A DNA stretch of 58,739 bases from Moniliella sp. 'wahieum'. Its lineage: Eukaryota. The stretch is taken from assembly GCA_003971905.1 (NCBI GenBank), contig RSEE01000172.1, positions 1 to 58,739 on the forward strand. Reading direction: 5' to 3'. The notes beneath the pieces are model-generated. The model had not been told where the DNA came from and ran no database searches. It worked only from the letters and a program-made list of their open reading frames with translations. This document shows positions 4,140 through 50,168 of this stretch, one piece after another. A program made the translations under genes and the position numbers. Within the stretch, counting starts at the first letter, position 1. Every line of letters starts with the position of its first letter.

Positions 4140-4436
4140 ATCTCAATGTCATAAGATCGGCTGGGAAATCCTGCACACTTTTACGTCATAGGCACGTGCC
4201 GACCGATGCCACGTTCCCAGCCACCCGCAGCCAGAGAATCTCAATGTCATAAGATCGGCTGGGAAATCCTGCACACTTTTACGTCATAGGCACGTGCCGA
4301 CCGATGCCACGTTCCCAGCCACCCGCAGCCAGAGAATCTCAATGTCATAAGATCGGCTGGGAAATCCTGCACACTTTTACGTCATAGGCACGTGCCGACC
4401 GATGCCACGTTCCCAGCCACCCGCAGCCAGAGAATC
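4140..4436 (+). repeat. Perfect tandem repeat, 98-bp unit x3
   Basis: Unit atctcaatgtcataagatcgg...cccgcagccagaga starts at 4140, 4238 and 4336. Confidence 0.95.
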
Positions 4437-8997: not shown

Positions 8998-10391
8998 TGT
9001 TGGCCTAGGGAGCCGGACGGGCAGAAGGATGAGGAGAAGGTGATGGATTGGAGCCAGAGTTGGGTCTGGGTACAGAGGCATCTATATAGGAGGCTGGACT
9101 AGGCACAGGGACAGTGAGTCACACAGGAGAGAGTGCAGGGCACAGGGACAGTGACACGCAGGGACGTCAGCGTGGAAGCCGATGGAACCGAGGCGAACCT
9201 GGTCTACCGACTGGGAGCCAGAGGATCACAGTCAACACCCCCGCTGGCCAGGGAACCCGGAGACATCGGTTGTGGGATGAGCTCCTGCCAGTGGATGTAG
9301 AGAGGGGAGGACTTGAGTGGCAACCGGGACGAATGGCCTGGAGTTGTGCATGGCCACACGACTGGCCTACACCCCCGCTGTCCAGGATGACACCTGAACG
9401 AGCCGAGCGCTTGTGGTTGGTGTATTGTGCGACCGCCAGATGCTTGTAGAAGTCTTAGAAGTAAAAGTAGTAGGGGTTGCGCCCGAAGCGATTGGTGGGC
9501 AAAAGTAAAAAGCACCAGTTATAGGTGTAGTGAAAGAAAATTGGAAACTTGGAGTAAATGCGGTCCAAGGTCGTTGGCATCAAAATTGGATGCGTTTGGT
9601 AGTTGTTTGGTTCCGCATGCCTGGTGCCAGTGGGGTCCATTGGGCATGGGAAATGAACGGGCGCTATGCGTCAACCGTCTTGATCTGTTTGGGTTCTCTT
9701 GTTGTTGAAAAAGAGGAGTGGAAGAAGTTGGGTGACCACCCCCCCCATCCTTTCCCCAGGTGCCCCGGATGAATTGGCAATCCGGGGCGTGTAGCCGTGG
9801 GTGGGGCACTTGATGAGCAGCCACCCCGCTTTCTGCGATTCGCCTGCGCCGTTTTGTCGTTGGAGGAATTTCGTCTCGTTGACGATACCCGACACGTTTT
9901 GTTCCGTCGTGTGTTGTCCTAAAAATCATTGCCCCATCTGTGGGGGACGAGTGTGCCGATTGTGACGGTAGTATGCCGATTGTGGCGGTAGTATGCCGAT
10001 TGTGGCGGTAAGGTGCCGATTGTGGCGGTGGTGTTGTTGGGCGGGAGGACGGGTGTGTCTTGTGGGCTTGGCGGCTTAGCTTGGGCTTGTAGGCTTGGGG
10101 GTGGGCTTGCTTGAAGAGCGCTCCCCTTCCGGGGGGATCAGATTGTAGCTCTGTTGGCCTAGGGAGCCGGACGGGCAGAAGGATGAGGAGAAGGTGATGG
10201 ATTGGAGCCAGAGTTGGGTCTGGGTACAGAGGCATCTATATAGGAGGCTGGACTAGGCACAGGGACAGTGAGTCACACAGGAGAGAGTGCAGGGCACAGG
10301 GACAGTGACACGCAGGGACGTCAGCGTGGAAGCCGATGGAACCGAGGCGAACCTGGTCTACCGACTGGGAGCCAGAGGATCACAGTCAACA
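8998..10391 (-). mobile_element. Non-autonomous LTR retroelement (TRIM/deletion derivative) with identical 240-bp LTRs and 5-bp TSD CGTAC
   Basis: LTRs at 8998-9237 and 10152-10391, each TGTTG...CAACA. CGTAC at 8993-8997 and 10392-10396. A G-run (PPT-like) on the minus strand abuts the 8998-9237 LTR. A degenerate gag-knuckle-like peptide (KRRRR...HAPDC) lies inside. Confidence 0.93.
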
Positions 10392-10868: not shown

Positions 10869-11599
10869 ATTGGCTCAACAGTTGGGTTGAATATCTCCCG
10901 CGGCGCGTAGCGTTTTCACGGACCTACCAGTCAGAATCAGCACAGAGCAAGTGCCCCTCGACGTACGCTTTGCTGGCCAAGTACCCGGTAGACGTACACC
11001 AGGTTGAGCGACGTCCTATCAAATGACTAGTAGAGATGCACAGTATGGGACATGGAGAGTGCTATAGCAAAAGCGTCTTAATCCTTTGAGGGCATGCGGA
11101 GAGGAAGGAGAAGAGGAGCGAGTGAAAAGGGGCAGATTGTGGTTATCTATTTCTTCAATAGTGAATTGGGAGTCACTAGCCAGCACTGACGCTCGCAGAT
11201 TCGCAATGACCCAAATACCATGGGAGGACAAAAAAGTCGGTACCACCAGCGCAGCACCCTCCACTAATATACTGGTTCGCTATACTGCATCCATATCATT
11301 GACAGAGCTTAAGGCTGGGACGGGAAGCGCTACGCCTAAACCGACCCGTTCACCTTGCGTGCGTTGCCTGGTACGCCATACTGTGCTCGGATGCATATAT
11401 ACGACCGCTACTGTATGATCAAAAGTCGCTCATTCCAAGTGTTTGGCGCATGTGTCTGCCATGTAGTAGTATGGCAAGAAGGCAAAACCACAAATGCGTT
11501 ACTCAGACAGCTCATCGGCAGCACGTTGGTGCAACTTGAGGCTTGTCAAGCCCAAGCATGAGAGGTTCTCCAGCAACGGATCCTTCCCGGTATATGATG

Positions 11600-13304: not shown

Positions 13305-13816
13305 GCTCTGTCAATGAAATTCTCTAGTGTGGTGCTCTACTGCTCCACTGCCCTCCATGCTCCAGAACACAGAGGGTGAGCAGCTTTGCGCTCAAGCCGT
13401 GAGTGTGTGCTGGGATGGGCGTCGAGAGGGAGCACTCAGGAAAGGGCTCGCGCTCATCCTGCGAAAGTGCACTGGCTGACTTGGGCGACGCCAACGCGAG
13501 CTGGGCGCTGAGGAAGGTTACGCGGTGCTTCGCTCAATCATCATGCCACACCCTACACATAGGTCACGTGCTAACCCGGCACGTATGCTGTGGGCAAAGC
13601 GGCCAAGGAGGTTACCTCGCCGCGTCTGAGCAATGGAGCTTCGAATCTGGAATGCGCGTATGCCCCACCCCTTGAAGGCGCACAAGGACCACCACAATGT
13701 ATATGATGTCTGCGTCGGTCAGCAGGCGGATGCTCTGGCCATTCGTCCACTTTGGCACTTCAGCAAACATGTCTCGCAAGCCCCTATATATACTGGATCC
13801 ATATCATTGACAGAGC
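13305..13816. mobile_element. 512-bp MITE with 13-bp TIRs (GCTCTGTCAATGA/TCATTGACAGAGC) flanked by TTAA
   Basis: TTAA at 13301-13304 and 13817-13820. The same terminus recurs at about 11297, 13855, 23698 and 32296. Confidence 0.75.
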
Positions 13817-13999
13817 TTAAGGCAAAAGTATCACTGCGCCGAGGAAACACATCTCATTGACAGAACTTAGGCTGGGACAACGAAACGCTGCGCATACACT
13901 GACCCGTTCATCCGGCGTGTGTTGCTTGTTAACGCCAACCTCGTCAAGGAACCATGGGAATCGCCAGGAGATCAGGGCCCTCTGGTGCCCGCCATCCGT

Positions 14000-14820
14000 T
14001 CCCATACCCGAGGAAGCGTGTGTAGATACGGACGAACGTGGTAGACATCCGAGCGATGAATATCTCCATGCAGTCAAATCCTTCCAGCGCCCAAGCATCT
14101 TGCCCGCTGTCTTGGTCGCATAGTGTCTTCGCGCCGTCAAAACCAAAAGGGGGAAAAGGGCTCTTGGGTGCGTCCCTGGTACGTGGTGTTCTTGTCGCAT
14201 TCTGCTTGTTCCAGCAGCCGAAGCAGCTTTGTCCTGGCGTTCCAAAGGCGTCGCGGTGCTCTCATGTACCACATCCGTCGGTACGCGGCCTGCTCCTCCT
14301 GCGTGCTCGAGTCGCGCAGCGTGTGGTCCACCTCCACCTCCATCCCTGATCCTCTGATTCCTCCAGGCCCCATCACGTGTGGTAGTCAGAGTGCATTGCC
14401 TTCCTCCCGCGCCCGTCACATCCTCTTCCTCCACAGTGGGCTCGTTGTGGGTGTGGGTGTCGGGGATGGAGCGCACGAGCTGGAGAACGAGGTCCCGCAC
14501 TGCCTCATGCAATGCACCAAACCTGACCTTGGTGCGGATGAAAGCCATATGATGTGCTGAACATGATGACACACTCGCGGCATGCTCCGTGTGGAGCGGC
14601 ATAGCATGTGGAGCGGCACAGCGTGCGGAGCGGAGACCAACCTCAACCTGCTTGTCGGCGAGCCGGAGGGACGGGGACGATGGAATGGAGGAGAGCTAAG
14701 TGAGGTTGAGCGGGTCGCGCTGCTCGACCACATTGGGACCACCCGGCATCGTCAATCTTCTGGAACAGTTCTTCTCGGCTCTTCTCCTACATTTCCCGTC
14801 TGCCCTGGCGTTGCTTCGTA
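14000..14820 (+). mobile_element. Possible decayed LINE 3' region (C-terminal CCHC zinc finger)
   Basis: CGC.G...ENEVPHCLMQC across a frameshift resembles the non-LTR ORF2 C-terminal knuckle. An A-rich tract occurs at about 15047-15059. Confidence 0.3.
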
Positions 14821-21957: not shown

Positions 21958-24437
21958 GGGGGGGCGGCGGCGGCGGCGGGCGGGGGGCGAGGGTGGGCAG
22001 GTGGGGCGAAGGGGTCGGACGCTTTAATATACGGGCAGGAGGTGATTGGGAAAGCGAGGGATGCACGGGGGCAAGAGTGCTGGCGTGTGCCAGGGCCAAG
22101 CAGGCGGCCGGAGGCACCCTACAGAGTGCGTGCAGGCCGACGCATTCTGAGATCTGAGATCTGCCGCGCTGGCGTCTGATCTGAGACCGAGTGCCATCCG
22201 TCCCCTGGGGGGGGCACTGTCGGAAATGCACCGGCTGCCGAAACGACACTGCGGCGACTGGCGAAGAATGCGAACGCACCCTGCGACGCCGAGTTAGAGG
22301 CTGGAAGATTGTTATTGAGCGGGAGCGCTGGGCCTGGGCAGCATTGCCCTTCCGGACGGACACACGTTTGCTCGGTACTATGTACTCGACGTACCCCACT
22401 GAGTACTACTGAGTACTGATTCAGTACCAGCCTGAGGACAATACGTCTGGGCATTCACATGCTCACATGTTCACACTAGCAAAAGCGCTTGGGTGCCATC
22501 GATGATCAACGTTCAACGTTCAACGTTCTACCTTCGACGTTCAGCTAGTCCCTATTCAACGTACCATGTACCAACGTACTCTACGTTAACTCCTGCCTTC
22601 ATTTTAGTCACTAGTCACTAGTCACTCCCACCATCCGAACGAGACGGCAGATGGACAGCCGTCACGCGTCACGGACACTGGCACCGCAGAAGGCAATTAC
22701 GGGGTACCGATTATCCGGTAATACATCCCAGTACCTCTATTACCTGTGTCAGGGTTGGATCCAGTACACAAAACATGTGTGAGTACACACGGTACGATGA
22801 GTAGGCTGCACCACTGTCACAGTGCAATGAGTACTGATTGATACTGAGGCCTGAGGAGGTCAGTCCGATGATTTGAAAAGTTGATACATACGGGAGCTGC
22901 GGATCAGGCTGTGTTCTGAGAGGGTTACGTCGTCTTCAGTGAGGCGTGGCTACAATAGCCACTTCCTAGTATTCGTACTAAAAAAAGTCGGAGTGATCAG
23001 TGACTTGACGAGTGATTCTCATGGGCACCAAACAGGGACAGCTGGGAATACGGATGGCGATGGAATTCGTATCTAGGGCGCGTGCCTTGCAGTGCCCGTC
23101 CTCTTTCAAGCCCCAGCACATTGGATGCATCACGCGTCACGAATGCCCCCCTCTTTTTCTGCCCCTGACTAAGTGGTGACTAGTGAGTGTGATTAGTGAC
23201 TGTCTTCAATGAGTGACTCGACTGGTTCATGACCAGGGCACTCAAGCGCCCAAGCGATCAGCGCTGCTCAGACCTCCCGCGAGTGACGAGCTGCTCCCTA
23301 GTCACTTGCACTTGCTTAGCGGCTCAGTGCTCAGCGGGGGCGCAGCATGTCTTAGATTTTAAGATCCTTCAAGGTCTCCAAGCTTCAGATCTATCTCAGA
23401 TCTCAGGCCTGAACCTCAGGCCTCAGGCCCCTCATTCCTCAGGATAGCTGCCGAGAAAACAGGCCACATAGGTTGGTGAAGCCGGAGCCCAAAGCGTCGA
23501 ATTGTGGCTTGAGGAGCTTGAGGGACTGCGGTAGGGACCGCGCGTCAGGTGCCGGGGACGCCCGACACGCGACAGGTTTCTCTGAAAGAGGTGATCGAGG
23601 TGATCGGTGATCTCCGATCATCGATCATCGATCATCGATCAAAGTTCAACGATTATTATTTCGTATTGAATCATCGATCAAATGTTTGTGTGCATTCCAT
23701 TGACAGAGCTTAAGGCTGGGACAGGGGGAACGCTACGTCTAAACCGAACCGTTCATCTTGCGGGGGTTACTTGGAGGCGCCACCAAGATTATATATGGGG
23801 CCGATGGAGGAAAGAAAAACAGGTGTTATATTCTCCGGTCTTTGCCTTACCGGTTCCCAGTTCCGGCTATATCGTAGTGTTCAGTTGAACGTGCAACGGA
23901 CGTTGACGTGAACGTAGGTTGAACGATGGAGCTATGAAGCTTGAAGGTTGAACGTTGAACGTTGATCGATGATCGTTGACGCGTTGCCGGAAGTGTCGGA
24001 TATCTACGTAAGCGCTAAGCCTCTTAGATCATAGATCTTACTTCTTCCTCTGAGATCTGATATCTGACATTGATCTTTGACAATATTGACACGTTGACAA
24101 TATTGACATGATGCATGATGCATGATAGAAGCCTGAGGCCTGAGGCGGCTCGGCGGCACGTCACCTTCATGCGTGAGCGCGTGAGCATAGCCTGGTTAGA
24201 CGTTAGGTGGCTGGCGGAACACACCAAGCGCGCCACGCGAGGAAGAAGGGAGAGAAGGGGAGAGGCAAGAGGCAAGAGGCAGGGAAGAACATTGAAAATT
24301 TGAGTGACGGGAACCCAGCTACTTATACCAAGCTTGTTGGTCGGCTCGGCACGGCGGCGCGCTGCTGGTCGAAGAGGAGGTTTGGGAGCGGCCTCTACTG
24401 GCTAAGAGTGATGGCAGCGAGAATGACTTGCCCGATG

Positions 24438-24582
24438 TTTAGACTGTGATCCCAGCTGCTCTTATCCCGGCTCGATAGCGTAGTGGTAACGCATCCCTGG
24501 CCCATAGGCGATGACATGGTTCGAATCCCATTCGAGTCTCCTTCTTTTCCTCACTATTTCCCCCGGGCTGTGCCTTCTCACA
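24438..24582 (+). mobile_element. Solo LTR (about 145 bp) containing a tRNA-like sequence (24469-24538), TSD CGATG
   Basis: T(G)TTAGACTGTGATCC...CTCACA flanked by CGATG at 24433-24437 and 24583-24587. Internal A box TAGCGTAGTGG and B box GGTTCGAATCC. Confidence 0.75.
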
Positions 24583-27199
24583 CGATGGGCTGGAGGCAAA
24601 CAGTAAACGTTAAACGGGGTGTGAATGCAAAAAAAGCCCCGAAACGGATACTGGTGACGCGCGGGACGTATCGTAATCCCCAGGCGGCCTCAGCGCCTCA
24701 GCAGGCCTCATCGGCTTATCGATCAAAAAATGATTAACTGACCATGTGATAACCTCGTGGTGGTACATGCTTGTCTATCGTTGTACCTTATGCATTACAC
24801 CACATGCATTTTTGGTGTGGAGCAAAGGCGACATGTCCGATTTCAGAAGCTCAGGCCTCCAACGAGAAGGGCTCGCATGCACTCACAGAGCGACAGTACG
24901 ATCAGTAGCATGTTTAACATTTAACGTTAACCACGTTTACGTTCCCGGCCGAAGTAAGTAATTGCGCACAGGCGTGTTGTGATCGTGATCTTTCACTGGT
25001 TGTGTTTTGGCAATCGTTTCTCAATGGCGTGCCTGTCCTACGCAGGGCGTCTATAGCTGCCGAGGCCTACGGGAGAGAAAGGAAGAATGAAGGGTCGTTG
25101 TCGCGGGGTTCTCATGTGCAGGCGACAGGCTGCAGTGTCAACGGGACAACACGCACCAGACGATGCATGAAGCTGTAAGCTTTAAGCTTCAATCCCAACA
25201 AGCGTCAAGCTTCAAGCCTTCTGGCGCAGCAGGGCGCAGCCAAGCCCTGCTGAGCCCCACAACCCCACCATAACGCGTAACGTGCCCTTCCTGTGGTCCG
25301 AACAGGGTGGGTGAGTGATCCAGGTGCACGTGACACGTGACGCATGATAATCGGTGATTCGATGATATGCAGGATGCTTTAGCACCAGCGGTGACCGGTG
25401 ACAGGGAACATGGGAAGGCGGGAGAGATCCCAGCGTGGGAGACAGACCCTTGCCTGGCAGTCCGCAGCAAAGCGCAGGCTATAGGCACCCGGGCTCCCCC
25501 GCCGGAGCAGGGCCGAGCGCAGCAAGGCGCAGCCTGCAGGGCACAAGCACCCAATCTATTTGTGTACAGGTGTACATACATCAACACATACACCATGGGC
25601 TGCACTCGTACGATTCGCCATAGGTACGAACGTGTGCTATTAATGAGTAGTTTTAACGTTTTTGGCTTTTGGCATTTAATATTTACGTTGTTAATAACGT
25701 TAATACGTTAATGCCATGCACATTCACGCAGTACGCCAGTGTGTGCCTGCGACTCGGAGAACCAAAGTCTCAGTATGTCTGACCGGTGCACCCCGTCCGA
25801 ACGCACACTGCCCGTCCGCCCAAGGGGGGATGCTGTTGGCTAAATTGGTTGTCTCACACCTCGGAGCAGACGCAGGAAGACGTTTTCGTGGCGCGGGAGG
25901 GAGAGGGTTACCGGTTACCGGTTATGCAGTACGTTGCACATGGATGATCGATTGGTACCAGCAATGCATGATGGATGTCGATGATTAATGATTAATGACT
26001 ATCGATTATCGATTAGTAGCTTGAAGCTGGAAGGGGAGCCGAAAGGGCACAGAACGTATGACATGTGACATGCATGACATGTGACATGTGACGTGCGACA
26101 TGCGACATGTGACATGGGACCGGGTGACCTGCTACCTGTCATGCCCTTGGCACTGACGCGTGACGCGTGACTGTCCATGGGCGCGTAGACTACAGGCGTC
26201 CAAAGTGTCCGAGTGCCTACAGTGCATAAGCACCAAGCGCCAAGCCCATCGTAAGAGTTAGAACCAGCATTTTTTCCCCAATCCTATGGGCTTCACGCGC
26301 GACGTGCGGTTTCCCCCGCATTGTAGGTTCTGACGCGTGACGACTGGAAAGAGCCAACAGCGCAGCTGTGGCGCTGAAACAGGAGTTGAGGCCCTTTCGA
26401 CTTTACTCGCACGCTCATCGAAATCAGCATTCATGGCGCTCATATGTGCTCAGCGCTCATATGTGCTCAGCGCTCATAGCGCTCATCCATAGTGTTTCTC
26501 TGGCCTCCGGCCTTTCAGCAGGCTCATCGTCTCATGCATACTTGTGTATATACTCTGTGGATACTATGATGCTTGCATGACAGTGTTGCCAAGCTGTCAG
26601 GAGGGTGTCTGGAGGAATAGGGGAACATGCTCTGTTGAACGTTGAACGTTGAACGTTGAACGTCGATGCATGATACTCACGAAGTCTTGCTTCCCAAAGG
26701 TACTATGAACCACGCGCACAAGAGAGTTAAAAAAAGGGCCCGACGTGTGGTATAGCACGGTTACGTTTAACCTCTTCCGCTTGAAGCTTCTTCGCCAGAT
26801 TGGCCCGATACTATCACCTCTTTCTTACTGAAAGAGGATAATGTAGGAGAAGTAAACAGGAAGGAGAAGCACACCAATGCCAAGCCGGTCGGACTCCATT
26901 ACTTCCCCTGCGAAAGTTACCACCTTTTTTAACGAATGATGGCTTGAGGAAATTACCGTGAGGGAAGCTCGCAGTCAGTCTCCTCTATATCGAGTCTTAT
27001 TTTCTCAATCAGCATACCTTTTCGAGATACTTCCATGCATGGCTTGGCGGTTTTTGATCCCTCTTTTCCAAAAGTTCTCTGCCTCGCTCCTCACTGAGAG
27101 ACTTACTCTGTTTTCCGTCTCTCTCCATGTCCTCTCTGCTCTAGTAGCTTCTCCTTCACGCAGGATTGCTCCACCCTCCACACTCGGGTCTCGACTCTG

Positions 27200-28760
27200 G
27201 TCCCATTAGCCTTCATGGCCTCTAGCGGCTGCGACATTATCGGTCGTCATAATATCATCAGACCAGAGACGTCTGCGACCCCCAGGCCCCTCGATCGGTG
27301 CACAACCTTAGCGCGCCGTACGCCAACACGCGTGTTTCGGGGCCCACTGCGACCCCTTCCAATCTTTTGTTCGACCTCCTGCCCAACTTTCCGTTCGACA
27401 CTAGCCGACGCTCCGTTCGATGACGATGGAAAGAGTGGTACCTCCCAACTAACATCTCTGTGACTCGCGCGGCGCTCCGTCCTTTTACTACTACCGCGCC
27501 CCTGCGGTTACTACGGGCCTGCCGCCGAGGTGGCGGGCTTGGGCCTTGCGGTCGCCCAGCGCCGGGTCGAAGAAGCCTGCAGAGCTGCCAGAACCTCATC
27601 AGAAGATCGGGTCTGCCTTGAGGCCTAGGAGGACCAGCACTGAGCGTTCCGAACGGATCAGGAGATCAAGCACCATAATCGTCGCCTCCGCTATAACAGA
27701 AGGAGAGGTGGATGAAAAGGCTTGGCTGACCACACCTTCGCAGATGACATCCAGAGTGGCATCCCGGTTGCTCTCGGCCGCCTCCGCCGTCACCGCGTCA
27801 CCACTTCTTATTATGGCGATCACATTACCGTCTCGTCCAAGACTATAGAGAGGATATCGAAAAAAATGTCGTCCCATTCTTTCTTCCTGTCGTCCGGCGA
27901 TAATTCCAGCTCAATAAGAACGGTCCCAGGAGCAAACAAGCGTCCTCACCTTTTTTGGAAATCTACGCAAGTGTGGCCCTCACATCCATCATATGGGCGA
28001 CGTGGCGTGGATTGACCACTTCATGGATTCTGTTGCAGAACGAGGTCTTCCCTTGAGTCCAACAGTTCGGCTCGGATTTGGCACTGCGCGGGTGAAGGCG
28101 CCAACCACGGCCACACGCCAGTGTTGACCTGGGTTTCTCTGTCATTCACTGGACGCGTACATCGCGGCCAAGCATCAGCTTCGCATCTCTCCTCCCGATC
28201 CCGAACCGGGGCCCATACATCTCAACTCAGCTATACCTTCTACGTCGAAGCGGCTCGACCCACACGAGCGTCCGTGTTCAAGATGAGGGCTTTTACTAGT
28301 CGGCTCCGCGAACACCTGCTTGCCAAGTACTCCGCCTTCACCTCGCCTCCTCGCCTATATTATCCCATCCCTGATGCTGTCTGAGTCGGCCGTGGTGTCC
28401 TACTACTCGTCGCCCCCCCTCGCCCCCCGGTCTTTCGCGGTACTCATCGTCAACATGCATCCTGGCTCCACCTTTCCGTCTCTGCAGTACCCCTCAGATC
28501 CTGGTCGCCGTCTTTTTGGTCAAGCTGGGGTCTAGCAGCGTTCGAATGGACCATGGCTTTGGCTTGGCTTGACAAATGCTGGCGTCGCTCTTTTGGTTGT
28601 GAGAGTGGTCAATGGGCGCAGCATGGCCTCGCGTCTGGTGGCCCAGCAGGCATTGGAGGCGTCCATCGCGGTCGGTTCCCAAGTCTCGGTATAGGGCTTT
28701 CTCCTCGTCTCCCTCCACCATCTCTTACATCATCCTCGGTTTCTCTTTTCTTGAAGACGT
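27200..28760 (+). mobile_element. Possible decayed tyrosine-recombinase retroelement (DIRS/Ngaro-like) remnant
   Basis: HTFADDI (RT-like) at about 27730. RRLFGQAGV...(G)HGF and GRF.S..Y at about 28505-28695 resemble YR box II (GHSFR...GRWxS..Y). Confidence 0.35.
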
Positions 28761-28964
28761 CAACCCCAGTACCGCCTATCCTTATAATGATAGTGCACGG
28801 CACCAGGCCCAACGTCCCAGGCTAGGTCTTTCTCGTGCCTGCTCCCCCCACCCCCCACCCCCCCCCCTTCCCTCCCTTCCTCCTCTCCGCCCCCCGGCTC
28901 GTGGTATGCATTCTTCCTTCCCAGTCTCTTCCTCCACGCTCGGGCCGCTCTTCCCTGCTTCTGC

Positions 28965-30325
28965 TGTGACGTGGGTGTCATCGCTTGCCTAGGCTGGTGC
29001 TATGTTGGCTCAGGGGTAAATAATTAGGCCAGTTCATACCATCATAGCCCGCGCTGCGCGCGCGCCCGCCTTTCCCGTCCTCCTTCTCTGCAATTGGTGT
29101 CCTGTTTCTCCACCCCAGCTCCGCTTTTCGCTTCACTGGCAACCTCGTCCCCGCTCACTGTGACCGATAGACTGGCCACCTCTTCTGTTGACTGCTCATC
29201 GGAGAGTGCCTGTTCCATGGCACAACAGGCTTTACGGGTGAAAACGTCCCTCTTTCGCTCCCCCCCCGCTCCCTCCGCTTTCTCCTTATCATGTCTTCCG
29301 CCTCCGTCAGGCTCCAGCGGGGGCCGGAGCAGTTCTCTGTCGTGATCTTACAGTAGCGCTGGTCCCGAACGCTCTCGCTGTCTCCTCCCCATCAACTGGA
29401 CCACGCTCGTCACCCAACTGATGGGCCACTTCGCAGCCATTGAACTCCCTCCTGACACCTCTTGGAAATCCTACTGGATCGTGCCCGGGTTCTCGGGTGC
29501 AATGCACCCGTTCCCACCGACCGGACTTCCCCCGCTAGGCGCCTGGATACGGAGAACTTGACCTGGATGTGGCTGAAGGGTTTCAAGCGGCTAATGCGGA
29601 CAGACCCTCAGTTGATTGAGACGTGGGCGCAAGCGGTTGACAAGGAAGGCGTCTCTCCGACCACCATTCACCTTACGGTCTGGGAGCACCATCTCATCCT
29701 TGGCACGGACCTTTGGGCGGCTATCGAACACCCAGAAGGTACCTGGTCGACGCTGCGGATAACGACGATCCTGCACCGGACCAACATCCTATAGCTGAGT
29801 CTCCTTGGAGGCAAAAACGAGTTTTTGGCTGACTTATGTGCATGGGATATGACTCTTCCCTATAGCGGAGGACGCTAAGGACTAGCCTTCGTCGCGCCTC
29901 TCATCTGGACAAGCAGTTCTCACACCCGGCCCTCCTCCTATTGCATCCCCTCTCGTCTTCACGTGGCGTTCCCTCTTCGTCCTCGAGGCTTTTCTAAACA
30001 AGCTTTCGCGGGGGGGCTGTGTTGGTGACGTGGGTGTGATAGCTTACCTATTAGTGGGCTGTGGCGCCATGGCTCAGGGGCACTAGGCCAGTTCATACCA
30101 TAGCTGGTGCCCCCTTTCCTGTCCTCTCCTTCTCCGTAATTGGCAGTGTTCTGTCCATCCACCATGCACCACCATCCGGCTCCTCGCTTCACTATAGTCA
30201 CTAATAGTCACTGGTAACCGGTAACCTCTTTCCCGCTCATGCCATGGCATATTTTGACTATAGCCCCCTCACCTGTAGACTGCTCGTCGGAGAGAGCCCT
30301 GTGATCCACGGCACGAAACGGCCCG
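28965..30325 (+). repeat. Diverged direct repeats of about 270-300 bp (28965-29231 and 30026-30323)
   Basis: Shared blocks gtgacgtgggtgt, ggctcagggg, taggccagttcataccat, tcgcttcact and gactgctc-tcggagag. Confidence 0.7.
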
Positions 30326-30951
30326 AATCGAGACAGCCTTTTCTCTCTGGAAGCTGGAGTAGTATTCTTCCAAATTCGAGAGGTGACAGGGAGGAAACCA
30401 ATGCTACAGTGGATTTGGCCTATTACCCCGCCGAACACGAGTTGGTCACCATCTCGTTAGTCGTCGCCGTCGCCGGCGGTCCCGCCTTCATGTTTCCCAC
30501 AGAGGGTTTAACGTACCCCAGTACTTCGAGCACCTCAGACGGTTCCCCTATGCTACCACTCTCTTTCCCCGGCGAAAAATTAGGGGCTACTCGCTCCTCG
30601 TCCATCCTACACTACCGACCCCTTTTGATAGTGTCCACGTCATCAATATCCATCGTGGCCTTGATATTGCTGATGTCAGAAACCTTATTTATTCTGACAT
30701 CCAGGATGTCAGCGCCATCTCGCCCCCCCCTTGCTATCCCTCGGGTCAAGGACGCGAGTGAGGTCAAATCTGTTATCGGCGATCACAACGACGTCAGTGC
30801 CATCAGTCTCCAAGCTTCAACGTTCAAAAGCAAAAGGCAATGGTCCCTGGATCTGCTCATGCAACCTCGATGGTGGCCGGTCAGAGGGCAGGCACACCTC
30901 GCATCGTTCTTTGGGCGAGGCGATGGCCCCGTGTTCCGCCGCTGTTCCGCC

Positions 30952-31095
30952 TGTTAGACTGTGATCCTGCAGCTGTTCTTATCCCGGCTCGATAGCGTAG
31001 TGGTAACGCATCCCTGGCCATAGGCGATGACATGGGTTCGAATCCATTCGAGCCTCTCTTTTCCTCACTGTTTCCCCGGGTTGTGCCCTCCCACA
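30952..31095 (+). mobile_element. Solo LTR (144 bp, TG...CA) containing a tRNA-like cloverleaf (30986-31054), TSD CCGCC
   Basis: CCGCC at 30947-30951 and 31096-31100. Acceptor stem GGCTCGA/TCGAGCC, D-arm GCGT/ACGC, B box GGTTCGAATCC, and TTTT just downstream. Confidence 0.85.
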
Positions 31096-31719
31096 CCGCC
31101 TCCTTGAATGTGTTTGCCGCGTATTCGCTGCTTCGCCACAGTTGACCAACGATGGGCCAGACATTTGTGCTCCATGCATCACACCACTACTTTTCTTTGC
31201 ATCTCGTCCAAGTAAGCGATCTATGGGCGACCGTGACGCGTGACGAGACCTGGAGTCCAGATGGTCCTCGAGGGTGATGCAATCGCACTGGTGGTGGTGG
31301 TCTATGCCAACCAGCAACGCCTACAGAGGAACATCAAGCAGTGAGTCGCCACCAGGGCTAAGCTGCGAACCAGGAAAAACAGGAGAGAAAGCAACGGAAC
31401 TCCCAGGCCTGAGGAGGAACTGAAGGGGCATTGGCCAAAGCACGAGCCACCTGATGGCTCAACAGACCGCTATGCGCCTCACTAGGAGACCACCGGGCCC
31501 ACTGTTGCCACGTGGCTGGCTAAGTCTTCTTCAGTTAGCTTACCTACTCAAAAGCTTTGTTTTCTTCTTGTAGCAACGCCTGTATTTGCCTTGCCTCCAC
31601 CTGTATCCCGCTCCCGCTTATATACTCGATACTCCTCTCTCTCTCCGCTGTATTCGCTGTCTGCATCGTAGAGACTGTTGTGTCTCGCTTACGTTCTGGC
31701 ATACTTGCGTCGCTACACC

Positions 31720-31870
31720 ACGGCCCGGTTTGCTGAGGCTTCGCCCCAGCCTGTTGGGCTGGGTCACCGTCGCCACCGTAGCCACCGTTCCCCCTAGAGA
31801 TACGCGCTGGCTGGGTTGACTGGAACGTGGCACACGTCAGCTGATGTAAAAGTGTACAGGGGCGTTCCCA
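31720..31870 (-). mobile_element. Diverged partial copy of the 4141-4631 Helitron-like element
   Basis: The reverse complement shares cacttttac, tgccacgttcc, gggggaacggtggcta-ggtggcgacg, gctggggcgaagcc-cagc and accgggccgt with 4160-4613. Confidence 0.7.
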
Positions 31871-31951
31871 TTTCCCATTTTTTCACCGGCCTCACGTAGT
31901 TCGAAGAGTACTAGAGTACTGGTAGAGCTAGTGACTAGTGACTAGCGGGTA

Positions 31952-32061
31952 GTGAAGCTTGAAGCTTGAAGAGTGTGAAGCGAAGCTTGAAGAGCTAGTG
32001 AAGCGAAGCTTGAAGAGCTAGTGAAGCGAAGCTTGAAGAGCTAGTGAGGCGAAGCTTGAAG
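31952..32061 (+). repeat. Minisatellite, 23-bp unit gtgaagcgaagcttgaagagcta x about 4
   Basis: Read directly from the sequence. Confidence 0.9.
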
Positions 32062-32429
32062 GATTATCGATTGGCATGAGATCCGAGATCGCAGTAGGTG
32101 ATCAGTCGATGGCGCCGCAAGCAGCAGGGCTGTACTGGTGCTGAGTGTAAGGTGAATCCCACGGCATCACAATATGGTGGGCGTGAGTAAAAAGGTCCAT
32201 CGATCATCGGCCTGAGCAAAGGAGCAACTCAAATAACGCAGGTGGCCCAGACCGCGTACCGGAAGGTGTTGGTACATGAGAGCACTGTGACGCCTTTAAA
32301 GCTCTGACAATGATAGGGATGCAGTATAGAGATAACTCCACTCTCTCCCTCTCAGTGGCATGGTTCGGCGTAATCGGTAATTTGATGTCCTCGACAAAAG
32401 TGCAGCACGGTGCTGTGCCACCATAATCG

Positions 32430-33350
32430 CCAAATGGCGCCCCACAAGTATGGTAAAGGCGTAGCGCAAAAGCGCGAAACCTTCTTGGTCATTCCTTCCA
32501 ATATTCCTTCTTAGGGGGCAGGAGTATTCTTTACTCTGTATTTTTGACTCTGATACGAGGCGCTGCGGTGTCTCCGATGCAGGGCCCCTCATGTCATAGG
32601 CATCTCTTATGAGCGGTCCTCAGTCTCTACATAGGCTAGCGAGAGAGCTTATCTATCCATGCAGCTGGCATCCTTCGCAGCCCGCTCAATATATGGGCGC
32701 ATGGGTACGATGCTTTGTTCCCATTGCGCCCCACATCGGCAGAACCCTTTGTCTGCGGCCCCCAACGGACGCGGACTGACAGAACAGACTGCGCTTTATG
32801 CCTTACTATTGTAGCTCTCTCTGCTGGCTATGTAGAGGACTGAGTACTGACGTATTGGAAGAGATGCCTACGAAATGCGGGCTCTGCGTCAGGAAGAGAT
32901 ACCGCAGTACCGTAACATCTCTGTGACATGCGCTCATGTGCAAAATGCAATACACCGTCAACTGACTGCTCTCTGGTCTTCACATCATTCCTCAGCCCAC
33001 CGGACACGGTGCCGTGCGCTAGTATGTCCGTCGAAGCGGAGGGTGTGCACTACACAGTGCAAACACTTGCGCTATCTATATCTAACAGTTGGAGCACGGT
33101 TCCATGTGGCGTATACTAGGCCAAGTGCCAGTCGCCAAGTGGATGGCGCCACAGTAGGTAAAGGCGCAGGCTAAGGGACCTTCCTTATCATTCCTTCCAA
33201 ACTTCCTGGAGGGCAGGAGTATATTCTCTAGCCTCACTGTAGCTCTCATGTGCAAATGTTGTAGTACTAGTATCAGTTATTAAGGGCGAGGCTAGCTCTT
33301 ATTCATCCCACCCCTGAACGCTTTCGGACCCCGCAAGTCTCTCGATATGG
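32430..33350 (+). repeat. Diverged local duplication (about 32432-32540 versus 33141-33235, with further weaker blocks)
   Basis: Shared atggcgcc, ggtaaaggcg, tcattccttccaa and gggcaggagtat. Confidence 0.65.
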
Positions 33351-34833
33351 CTCCCATCAGACCCGATGTGGATATTTTGATGACAGCCTGGCCTAGCGAG
33401 GCAACCAGACTGCATCCAGGACCAACAGGACGACATCCGCGCACCCTCGGCCATACGTTTGTTCACCCCAAGCCGACTTCCAAGCCGGGGTCAGCCGCTT
33501 GTTGGAGAGCATGACGTGCCCGACACCCCATGTGGAGGGCCATGATCCGACTCCAAGATCAGGTCGCAGACGTCCGCGAAGCCCTAAGTGGAGTAAAAAC
33601 GAAATGCAACATGAACTCCATGAAGCCCAAAATGGAAAGTTCTTCATGAGATCATGACACGGACGGCCACGTCGCGCAGGCCACTACGAGCCAGGATGAA
33701 GACGCAGAAAAGCGGACTCGAGATGCTGTTGGCCAAGTCCGCCCTATATCTGTATGCCTCCATTTTTCATCTTCAGATGATTAATTTTAAGGCTGACCAC
33801 AGCATCTTTTCCGTTTAACCGCATTTTGGTTTTGCAGCGCAAGTACATTAAACAGCTAGTCATGTGTTGCATGAAGGCGCCTTGGGAAGCGTCTCATCTA
33901 GAAGGCTCCTGTGCGGTATGTATCTATCTTGGATCGCTCGAGACCGAGCTTTCTCTGTGACAAAAATGGTTTGGTTGAGCAGGAATGGGCCAAACTCACG
34001 TTGCCGAACCCAGGCCTCCTGGCACCGTTATCGATGTTGCAACTGTGATGATAAAGGGTGCCTAGGCAAAAGAGTATGGGCAAGAATAACGCGAGCCATA
34101 GCGGTCATCCGCTATGAGATCCTAACTAATGTGCGTATCTTCATTTGGTTCCTTTCCCCTTCACGGTACGTTCTGAACGCTTCTGCCCGAATCCACTTGC
34201 AGGTGGAGACGCACCACTGAGAGTAAGTAAGGCACCGTGGGCCCACATCGGATGCTTTCAGTGTCGCCTCATTTCAAAAGAAGGTTGTCAAACATAACCT
34301 GGGAGACTATGGCCGCAACCTCAACCGCGTGGAGGGCAGCAAGCTTGCGATGCGCATTCGCATCCTCCTTTATTTCTGCCTCGATTTGCTGAATATACGA
34401 CCAGGTGGAGAAGCTGTCGAACGGACTTTGAAACCAGCTGGGGCATTTCGCTGGATGCCATCCCTGACTCTGATGCAACGGTACCCGCTGAGGCAGCGGC
34501 TGTGATGCTAACCTTTCGAACACATGTGGCGACCGGGCCCGATATGCAATACCAATCTATCCAAATACCACAGATCTCCTTTTTTTGGTTTAATTATAGG
34601 ATTAGCCATTATTATTGGATAGTCCCCCATTGGCAAGAAACGTGTACGCAACAGGAGCAGTCATAGTCCTCGATGTCGACAGTGTCATCGGGAGACATTG
34701 ATGTCGGGGTACCCGGGGACATCTATGCCATCGTTGGAGACCTATTACCCCTATGGTATCACCCACGTCAATGACACCCCCGACGTCTAAGCCCCCTCCG
34801 ACGTCTAAGACACTCACGACGTCTAAGGCACTG

Positions 34834-49913: not shown

Positions 49914-50074
49914 GCGCAGGCGGTGATGCGCCGCAAATCACATGTGATGGCATGTCCATGTCACATGCCCTCGTGCAGACAGGCGCAGGCAGACAGGCAG
50001 GCAGCAACCCACCCACACCCCACAGGCGACCACGTACGAATCGACGATGGCCATAGACACCCCCCCAAAAAAAG

Positions 50075-50168
50075 TGCGGCCGCCGGGAATCGAACCCGAA
50101 CCTTCAGCTGCCCCCGGCTGGCGGTGCCCACGTGGAAGGCTAAAATTCTACCACTAAACTACCGCCGC
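50075..50168 (-). tRNA. tRNA-Gly(TCC), intron-containing
   Basis: GCGGCGG-TAGTTTAGTGGTAGAAT, anticodon stem TTAGC/GCTGA around CT-TCC-A, an intron, GGTTCGATTCCC and a T7 terminator. Confidence 0.9.

Follow-up and report, generated by a model that had tools for sequence, protein, structure and literature searches.

Genes and repeats of the window

The 58.7-kb window, by which we mean the whole stretch of DNA analysed here, was scanned with Pfam using 40 of its 47 open reading frames (ORFs) of at least 200 aa. Matches were obtained in 6 of these 40 ORFs: ribosomal S28e, S5e/uS7, protein kinase, RRM, GAF and a weak His-kinase. The S5e ORF is 90% identical to Tilletiaria anomala and 80–83% identical to other Ustilaginomycotina, with one entry at 98%. 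Judged from its sequence, the window is fungal nuclear DNA, and its host groups with Tilletiaria, a genus of the Georgefischeriales (Exobasidiomycetes, Ustilaginomycotina). A 98-bp unit lies in three perfect tandem copies at 4140–4436, beside or inside the ORF with the ribosomal S28e domain. The only genuine tRNA gene of the window, detected by both ARAGORN and Rfam, is a tRNA-Val (CAC) on the minus strand at 50074–50168. It is 95 nt long and therefore presumably bears an intron, and it is directly trailed by a run of seven Ts, which provides a local example of a Pol III terminator of this host.

The two short units with which this analysis is concerned lie within a 12-kb stretch (22000–34000) where 68 ORFs of at least 70 aa contain no Pfam domain at or above threshold; the sole match is a sub-threshold HnRNP_M_NLS. 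This stretch is gene-poor or holds orphan genes only. No reverse transcriptase, integrase, protease or gag domain was found by Pfam in these 68 ORFs. The ORFs abutting the insertions (30208–30954 on the plus strand and 24027–24401 on the minus strand) have no Pfam match, and their translations are non-coding in appearance.

Other repeats are present as well. A dispersed family containing CATATCATTGACAGAGCTTAAGGCTGGGAC occurs at 11281–11378, 13789–13937, 23682–23762 and 14244–14304 on the plus strand and at 32236–32332 on the minus strand, its copies being 80–97% identical over 35–89 nt. Two of them, in opposite orientations, bracket the region with both units. Arrays of the heptamer TGAACGT/ACGTTCA, found in both orientations, occupy 22497–22551, 23935–23987 and 26614–26674.

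Two short units with a tRNA-like core

A first-pass annotation of this DNA had described a 144-bp TG...CA unit occurring twice, and alignment and BLASTN located both copies where it had placed them, at 24438–24582 (copy A) and 30952–31095 (copy B), both on the plus strand. The description is accurate for copy B, which is 144 nt long and reads TG...CA. Copy A is 145 nt long and starts with TT, one G having been lost from the terminal TG, so that it reads TT...CA. The two copies are co-oriented, spaced 6.5 kb apart and 90.5% identical over 147 columns (BLASTN, E 2.5e-50), and they are the sole such pair among 11 non-self matches when the window is compared with itself. They are separated by 13 events. 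The 6 substitutions among these are without exception transitions; of the 7 indels, five concern single bases within homopolymer runs, and some of the indels may be artefacts, including two that damage the T arm, one in each copy.

Similarity between the copies ends precisely at the unit borders, and the flanks cannot be aligned. Each of the two copies is enclosed by a perfect 5-bp target-site duplication (TSD), and the two TSDs differ: CGATG at 24433–24437 and 24583–24587 for copy A, and CCGCC at 30947–30951 and 31096–31100 for copy B, all on the plus strand. The chance of finding both is about (1/1024)^2, or one in a million, a figure obtained by simple reasoning and not by a computed test. 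When the two ends of the unit are compared in inverted orientation, only TGT/ACA matches, which is typical of LTRs, and there is no longer inverted repeat. Both copies end in ...CACA, and neither has an A-rich or simple-repeat tail.

We considered whether copies A and B could be the two LTRs of a single 6.6-kb element. This was rejected because a separate matched TSD encloses each copy and the outer flanks are unlike, because none of the 68 ORFs at 22–34 kb has a retroelement domain, and because the sequences 3′ of copy A and 5′ of copy B do not resemble a PBS or a PPT. The distinct, perfect TSDs and the lack of such domains between the copies support the earlier proposal that these are separate insertions of the integrase type.

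Copy B consists of a 34-nt leader, a 70-nt tRNA-like core, a run of four Ts (T4) and a 33-nt tail. Its core (30986–31055, plus strand) has an A box at 30993–31003 and a B box at 31035–31045 and is followed by T4 at 31059–31062; the core of copy A (24469–24539, plus strand) has its A box at 24476–24486 and its B box at 24518–24528, with T4 at 24545–24548. The Rfam tRNA model scores 44.3 bits for the core of copy B and 38.5 bits for that of copy A, both above the gathering score of 29. The A-box-like TAGCGTAGTGG and the B-box-like GGTTCGAATCC are intact in both copies and conform to the classical consensus for each box. TTTT follows the 3′ strand of the acceptor by 4–6 nt in both copies. The minimum-energy fold of both cores is a cloverleaf, with unexceptional folding energies: 11 of 200 shuffles do as well in one case (z −1.68) and 56 of 200 in the other (z −0.51). 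The Rfam scores and the motifs confirm the tRNA-like part, with its two boxes and its T run, that had been noted at the outset. Against the motifs given by Kojima (PMC10886601), GGTTC and YGG fit, and TRGCY fits at 4 of 5 positions, with G in the A box of the unit where Kojima has Y.

The core is not a working tRNA, and its anticodon arm is non-functional. The first-pass annotation was right that this arm is distorted, and the loop that it gave as GGCCAT is corrected here to GGCCATA in copy B and GGCCCATA in copy A. ARAGORN at its default setting finds a tRNA in neither of the two copies. With the threshold relaxed, it reports Gly-CCC for copy A and Trp-CCA for copy B, with G-G at loop positions 32–33, so that U33 is replaced. 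Measured by a 7-nt anticodon loop, U33 and a consistent isotype, which mark a functional tRNA, both copies fail. It had also been asked whether the sequence is simply a normal tRNA gene with non-repeated flanks; the Rfam tRNA model is indeed positive, yet default ARAGORN is silent, and each copy is flanked by a TSD. The two Rfam-positive "tRNA" matches are best regarded as transposon relics, and their annotation as tRNA genes should be avoided.

A neighbouring two-LTR element and its LTR end

A complete, non-coding 1394-bp two-LTR element lies on the minus strand at 8998–10391. It is not a copy of the unit, and we used it as a comparator. Its LTRs (10391–10152 and 9237–8998) are 240 bp long, read TG...CA and are identical at 240 of 240 positions, from which we conclude that the element is very young. 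It is flanked by the TSD GTACG (10396–10392 and 8997–8993). A PBS-like GAGCTACAATCT lies 3′ of the 5′ LTR, a purine run, AGCGGGGG, lies 5′ of the 3′ LTR, and the interior has 20-bp tandem repeats and T5 runs.

The LTR of this element starts with TGTTGACTGTGATCCT and the unit with TGTTAGACTGTGATCCT; over the first 16–17 nt, the two are the same except for one base. The 11-mer GACTGTGATCC occurs exactly four times in the 58.7 kb, each time at base 5–6 of a TSD-flanked LTR. Copies A and B account for two of these sites and the LTR pair of the 1394-bp element for the other two, none of them with a mismatch; 2 of 100 shuffles gave four matches at up to one mismatch. Copy B aligned locally to the 240-bp LTR with a score of 27, compared with 17.3±2.5 for shuffled sequences (reached by 1 of 500). 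Copy A against the 240-bp LTR over the full length gave a weak match, which 39 of 500 shuffles reached. Past the first 16–17 nt, no similarity between the unit and the 240-bp LTR was detected (score 16, compared with 17.1±2.6 for shuffles, 359 of 500 of which reached it).

The 1394-bp element, which is of the TRIM/LARD type, therefore resembles the units in the first 16–17 nt of its LTR, in its 5-bp TSD and in its TG...CA ends. It differs from them in that its LTR is 240 bp long, has no Rfam tRNA match at E values up to 10 and is identical to its partner, whereas the units differ from one another by 13 events. We also considered that a relic of the tRNA might persist inside the 240-bp LTR, and the same Rfam result led us to reject this. 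A common LTR end combined with unlike LTR bodies is what would be expected of non-autonomous elements that share one integrase. The shared 16-nt end and the PBS of the neighbour provide a handle for searching the full assembly for the autonomous partner.

Interpretation and relation to Helenus elements

We think it likely that the units are solo LTRs left by a family of small LTR retrotransposons with a tRNA-derived module in the LTR, of the Helenus type (TRIMp3), in a Tilletiaria-related host. Reading the units as LTRs draws upon the 5-bp TSDs, upon homology that ends at the TSDs and upon a terminus held in common with a true two-LTR element. Reverse transcription of the LTR type also explains why a 34-nt leader is part of the repeat, which the copying of a Pol III transcript does not.

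An autonomous element, probably of the Copia type, would have supplied the reverse transcriptase that copied a full element with the order LTR-PBS-short spacer-PPT-LTR. The integrase of that same autonomous element would have inserted the copy, recognizing the shared LTR end and producing the 5-bp duplications, and later recombination between the two LTRs would have excised the interior, so that a single LTR stayed behind within the original TSDs. The tRNA-like part would function not as a tRNA but as an internal promoter for RNA polymerase III, with the leader corresponding to U3, the tRNA-like core through T4 to R, and the tail to U5. Transcription from such a promoter would have to read through the weak T4 run in the 5′ LTR. 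Longer T runs are needed for a Pol III stop in yeasts. Because the only genuine tRNA gene of the window has T7 and not T4, T4 is possibly a weak stop, or no stop at all, for Pol III in this host.

BLASTN found two copies of the unit in the 58.7-kb window, both of them solo, and no two-LTR copy with a PBS or PPT. A metagenome scan with an exact 20-mer of the unit gave 0 matches, and a gapped LTR-start pattern gave 1, in a 1281-nt contig that does not have the tRNA-like part, which we attribute to chance. Scans of public genome contigs with the exact pattern and of viral contigs each gave 0 matches. Because there are only two solo copies and no two-LTR copy, the parent could be larger or even autonomous. 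The units might then be solo LTRs of a LARD or of an autonomous Copia or Gypsy element that had captured a tRNA or SINE fragment, as opposed to those of a Pol III-driven TRIM. The co-resident 1394-bp element lends some weight to this, having the same LTR end together with T5 runs that are not Pol III-friendly; in addition, PMC10886601 reports that "not a few" LTRs in Repbase hold tRNA-like pieces and that TRIMs are only some of them. However, at 144 nt the LTR is very short, divergence between the copies has left both boxes intact in each, and the succession of leader, core, TCTTTTC and short tail is that of the 110–130-bp Helenus LTRs in the same source, so that we judge a larger parent to be unlikely.

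We regard as very unlikely that the units are a tRNA-derived SINE (SINE2), that is, a Pol III transcript copied by a LINE, with the 5-bp flanks being short TSDs by coincidence. The units do resemble SINE2 elements in their tRNA-like head, in which both boxes are present, and in their T run. They differ in that the repeat begins 34 nt 5′ of the tRNA-like +1, has TG...CA ends (...CACA at its 3′ border) with no A-rich or simple-repeat tail, and is flanked by a fixed TSD of exactly 5 bp in both copies, and in that the 5′ end is common to a true LTR. Two further readings, a dispersed tRNA pseudogene whose flanks are conserved and a DNA transposon of small size with terminal inverted repeats (MITE), are largely refuted and highly improbable: the core does score as a tRNA with Rfam, and Transib-type elements also produce 5-bp TSDs, but the homology ends are sharp, the two perfect TSDs are different, and the inverted ends amount to TGT/ACA only, too little for terminal inverted repeats.

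The assignment of the units to Helenus-type solo LTRs can be compared with the published description of the type. Helenus elements are TRIMs with tRNA-derived sequence in their LTRs, described by Kojima (2024, Biology 13:119, PMC10886601); Cassandra, according to the same source, is a TRIM with 5S rRNA in its LTR, and the first-pass annotation was right about both. That paper names Pucciniales, Agaricus, Coprinopsis and Amylostereum as the fungal hosts of Helenus and describes these fungal elements as having 5-bp TSDs and as probably mobilised by Copia elements. Many Helenus elements are described there as having a PBS that is the complement of the anticodon loop of a tRNA, and for many families TSD-flanked solo LTRs are all that survives, which does not prevent their acceptance as families; Pol III transcription is unproven in that paper even for Helenus itself. 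In the fungal rows seen of its Table S1, LTRs are 106–284 bp long, a range that includes the 144 and 145 nt of the units, and the TSD is always 5.

Comparison with individual LTR starts in this source, made by eye, gave 16/19 for Helenus-7_PSt, 14/18 for Helenus-9_PSt, 19/24 columns with one gap for Helenus-3_PHor, and 14/18 for Helenus-2_CCin of Coprinopsis; taken by itself, the degenerate start motif is not unusual in this window, a match being given by 15 of 100 shuffles. Just past the tRNA-like part, both copies have TCTTTTC. This string occurs 34 times in the Kojima supplement, and in 9 of the 9 matches listed it stands shortly past the tRNA-like part of a fungal Helenus LTR. By eye, the likeness to the published sequences is confined to the first 18–24 nt and this motif. 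The 16–17-nt start common to a two-LTR element and a layout that fits the published fungal Helenus elements support the proposal, made in the first-pass annotation, of Helenus-like solo LTRs.

None of six words of 10–13 nt from the unit was found in Kojima's Data S1 by a text match in which words split by line ends go unmatched. Ustilaginomycotina, Tilletia, Malassezia and Exobasidium are unmentioned in the text and supplement of PMC10886601. Our literature search returned no paper linking Helenus with Ustilaginomycotina and none linking Tilletiaria with LTR and transposable elements, and it returned TRIMp3 as a transposable element term only in Kojima 2024; later papers cite Helenus in passing only. 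Since no 10–13-mer is found in the Kojima file and Ustilaginomycotina are absent from the listed hosts, it is plausible that the units represent an undescribed Helenus-type family.

The PBS-like GAGCTACAATCT of the 1394-bp element agrees by eye at 9 of 12 positions with the internal start of rust elements of the Helenus-9 type. By eye, this sequence and the PBS of the Helenus-9 type both read as the complement of a tRNA-Tyr (GTA) anticodon loop. A TGTTAGAYTRTGA-like LTR start is common to the unit, the 1.4-kb element, and the rust and Coprinopsis Helenus elements. From this shared start and the likeness of GAGCTACAATCT to the rust PBS, we speculate, as a tentative and rather unlikely reading, that a single old Copia lineage, with a tRNA-Tyr half-molecule as its primer, was already carrying ordinary as well as Pol III-promoted parasites before the three Basidiomycota subphyla diverged and has done so ever since. 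If this is true, basidiomycete Helenus would be ancient and of a single origin and would not have been born repeatedly.

Among known systems, Cassandra resembles the units in that its LTR houses a small-RNA gene whose Pol III promoter is internal. It carries 5S rRNA whereas the units are tRNA-like, and Rfam found no 5S match in the window. The fungal Helenus elements share with the units a boxed tRNA-derived core in the LTR with a non-functional anticodon arm, a 5-bp TSD, a TGTTAGA... start, a leader of roughly 30 nt, a short tail ending in ACA, T4 in a TCTTTTC context past the core, and occurrence as solo LTRs. Among those compared, the closest layouts are LTRs of 110–130 bp, such as those of Helenus-9_PSt, Helenus-6_PTrit, Helenus-3_PHor and Helenus-10_PTrit. 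The published elements differ in including PBS/PPT structure, whereas the units are known here from two solo copies in one window, and in their hosts, which in the paper are Pucciniales and a few Agaricomycetes as against Ustilaginomycotina here. What the units add is a new host group for Helenus and not a new kind of element, the type being known since 2024 from rusts and mushrooms. Our knowledge of how such elements work is unchanged, and on this reading Helenus-type elements are extended to the Ustilaginomycotina, a third subphylum of the Basidiomycota.
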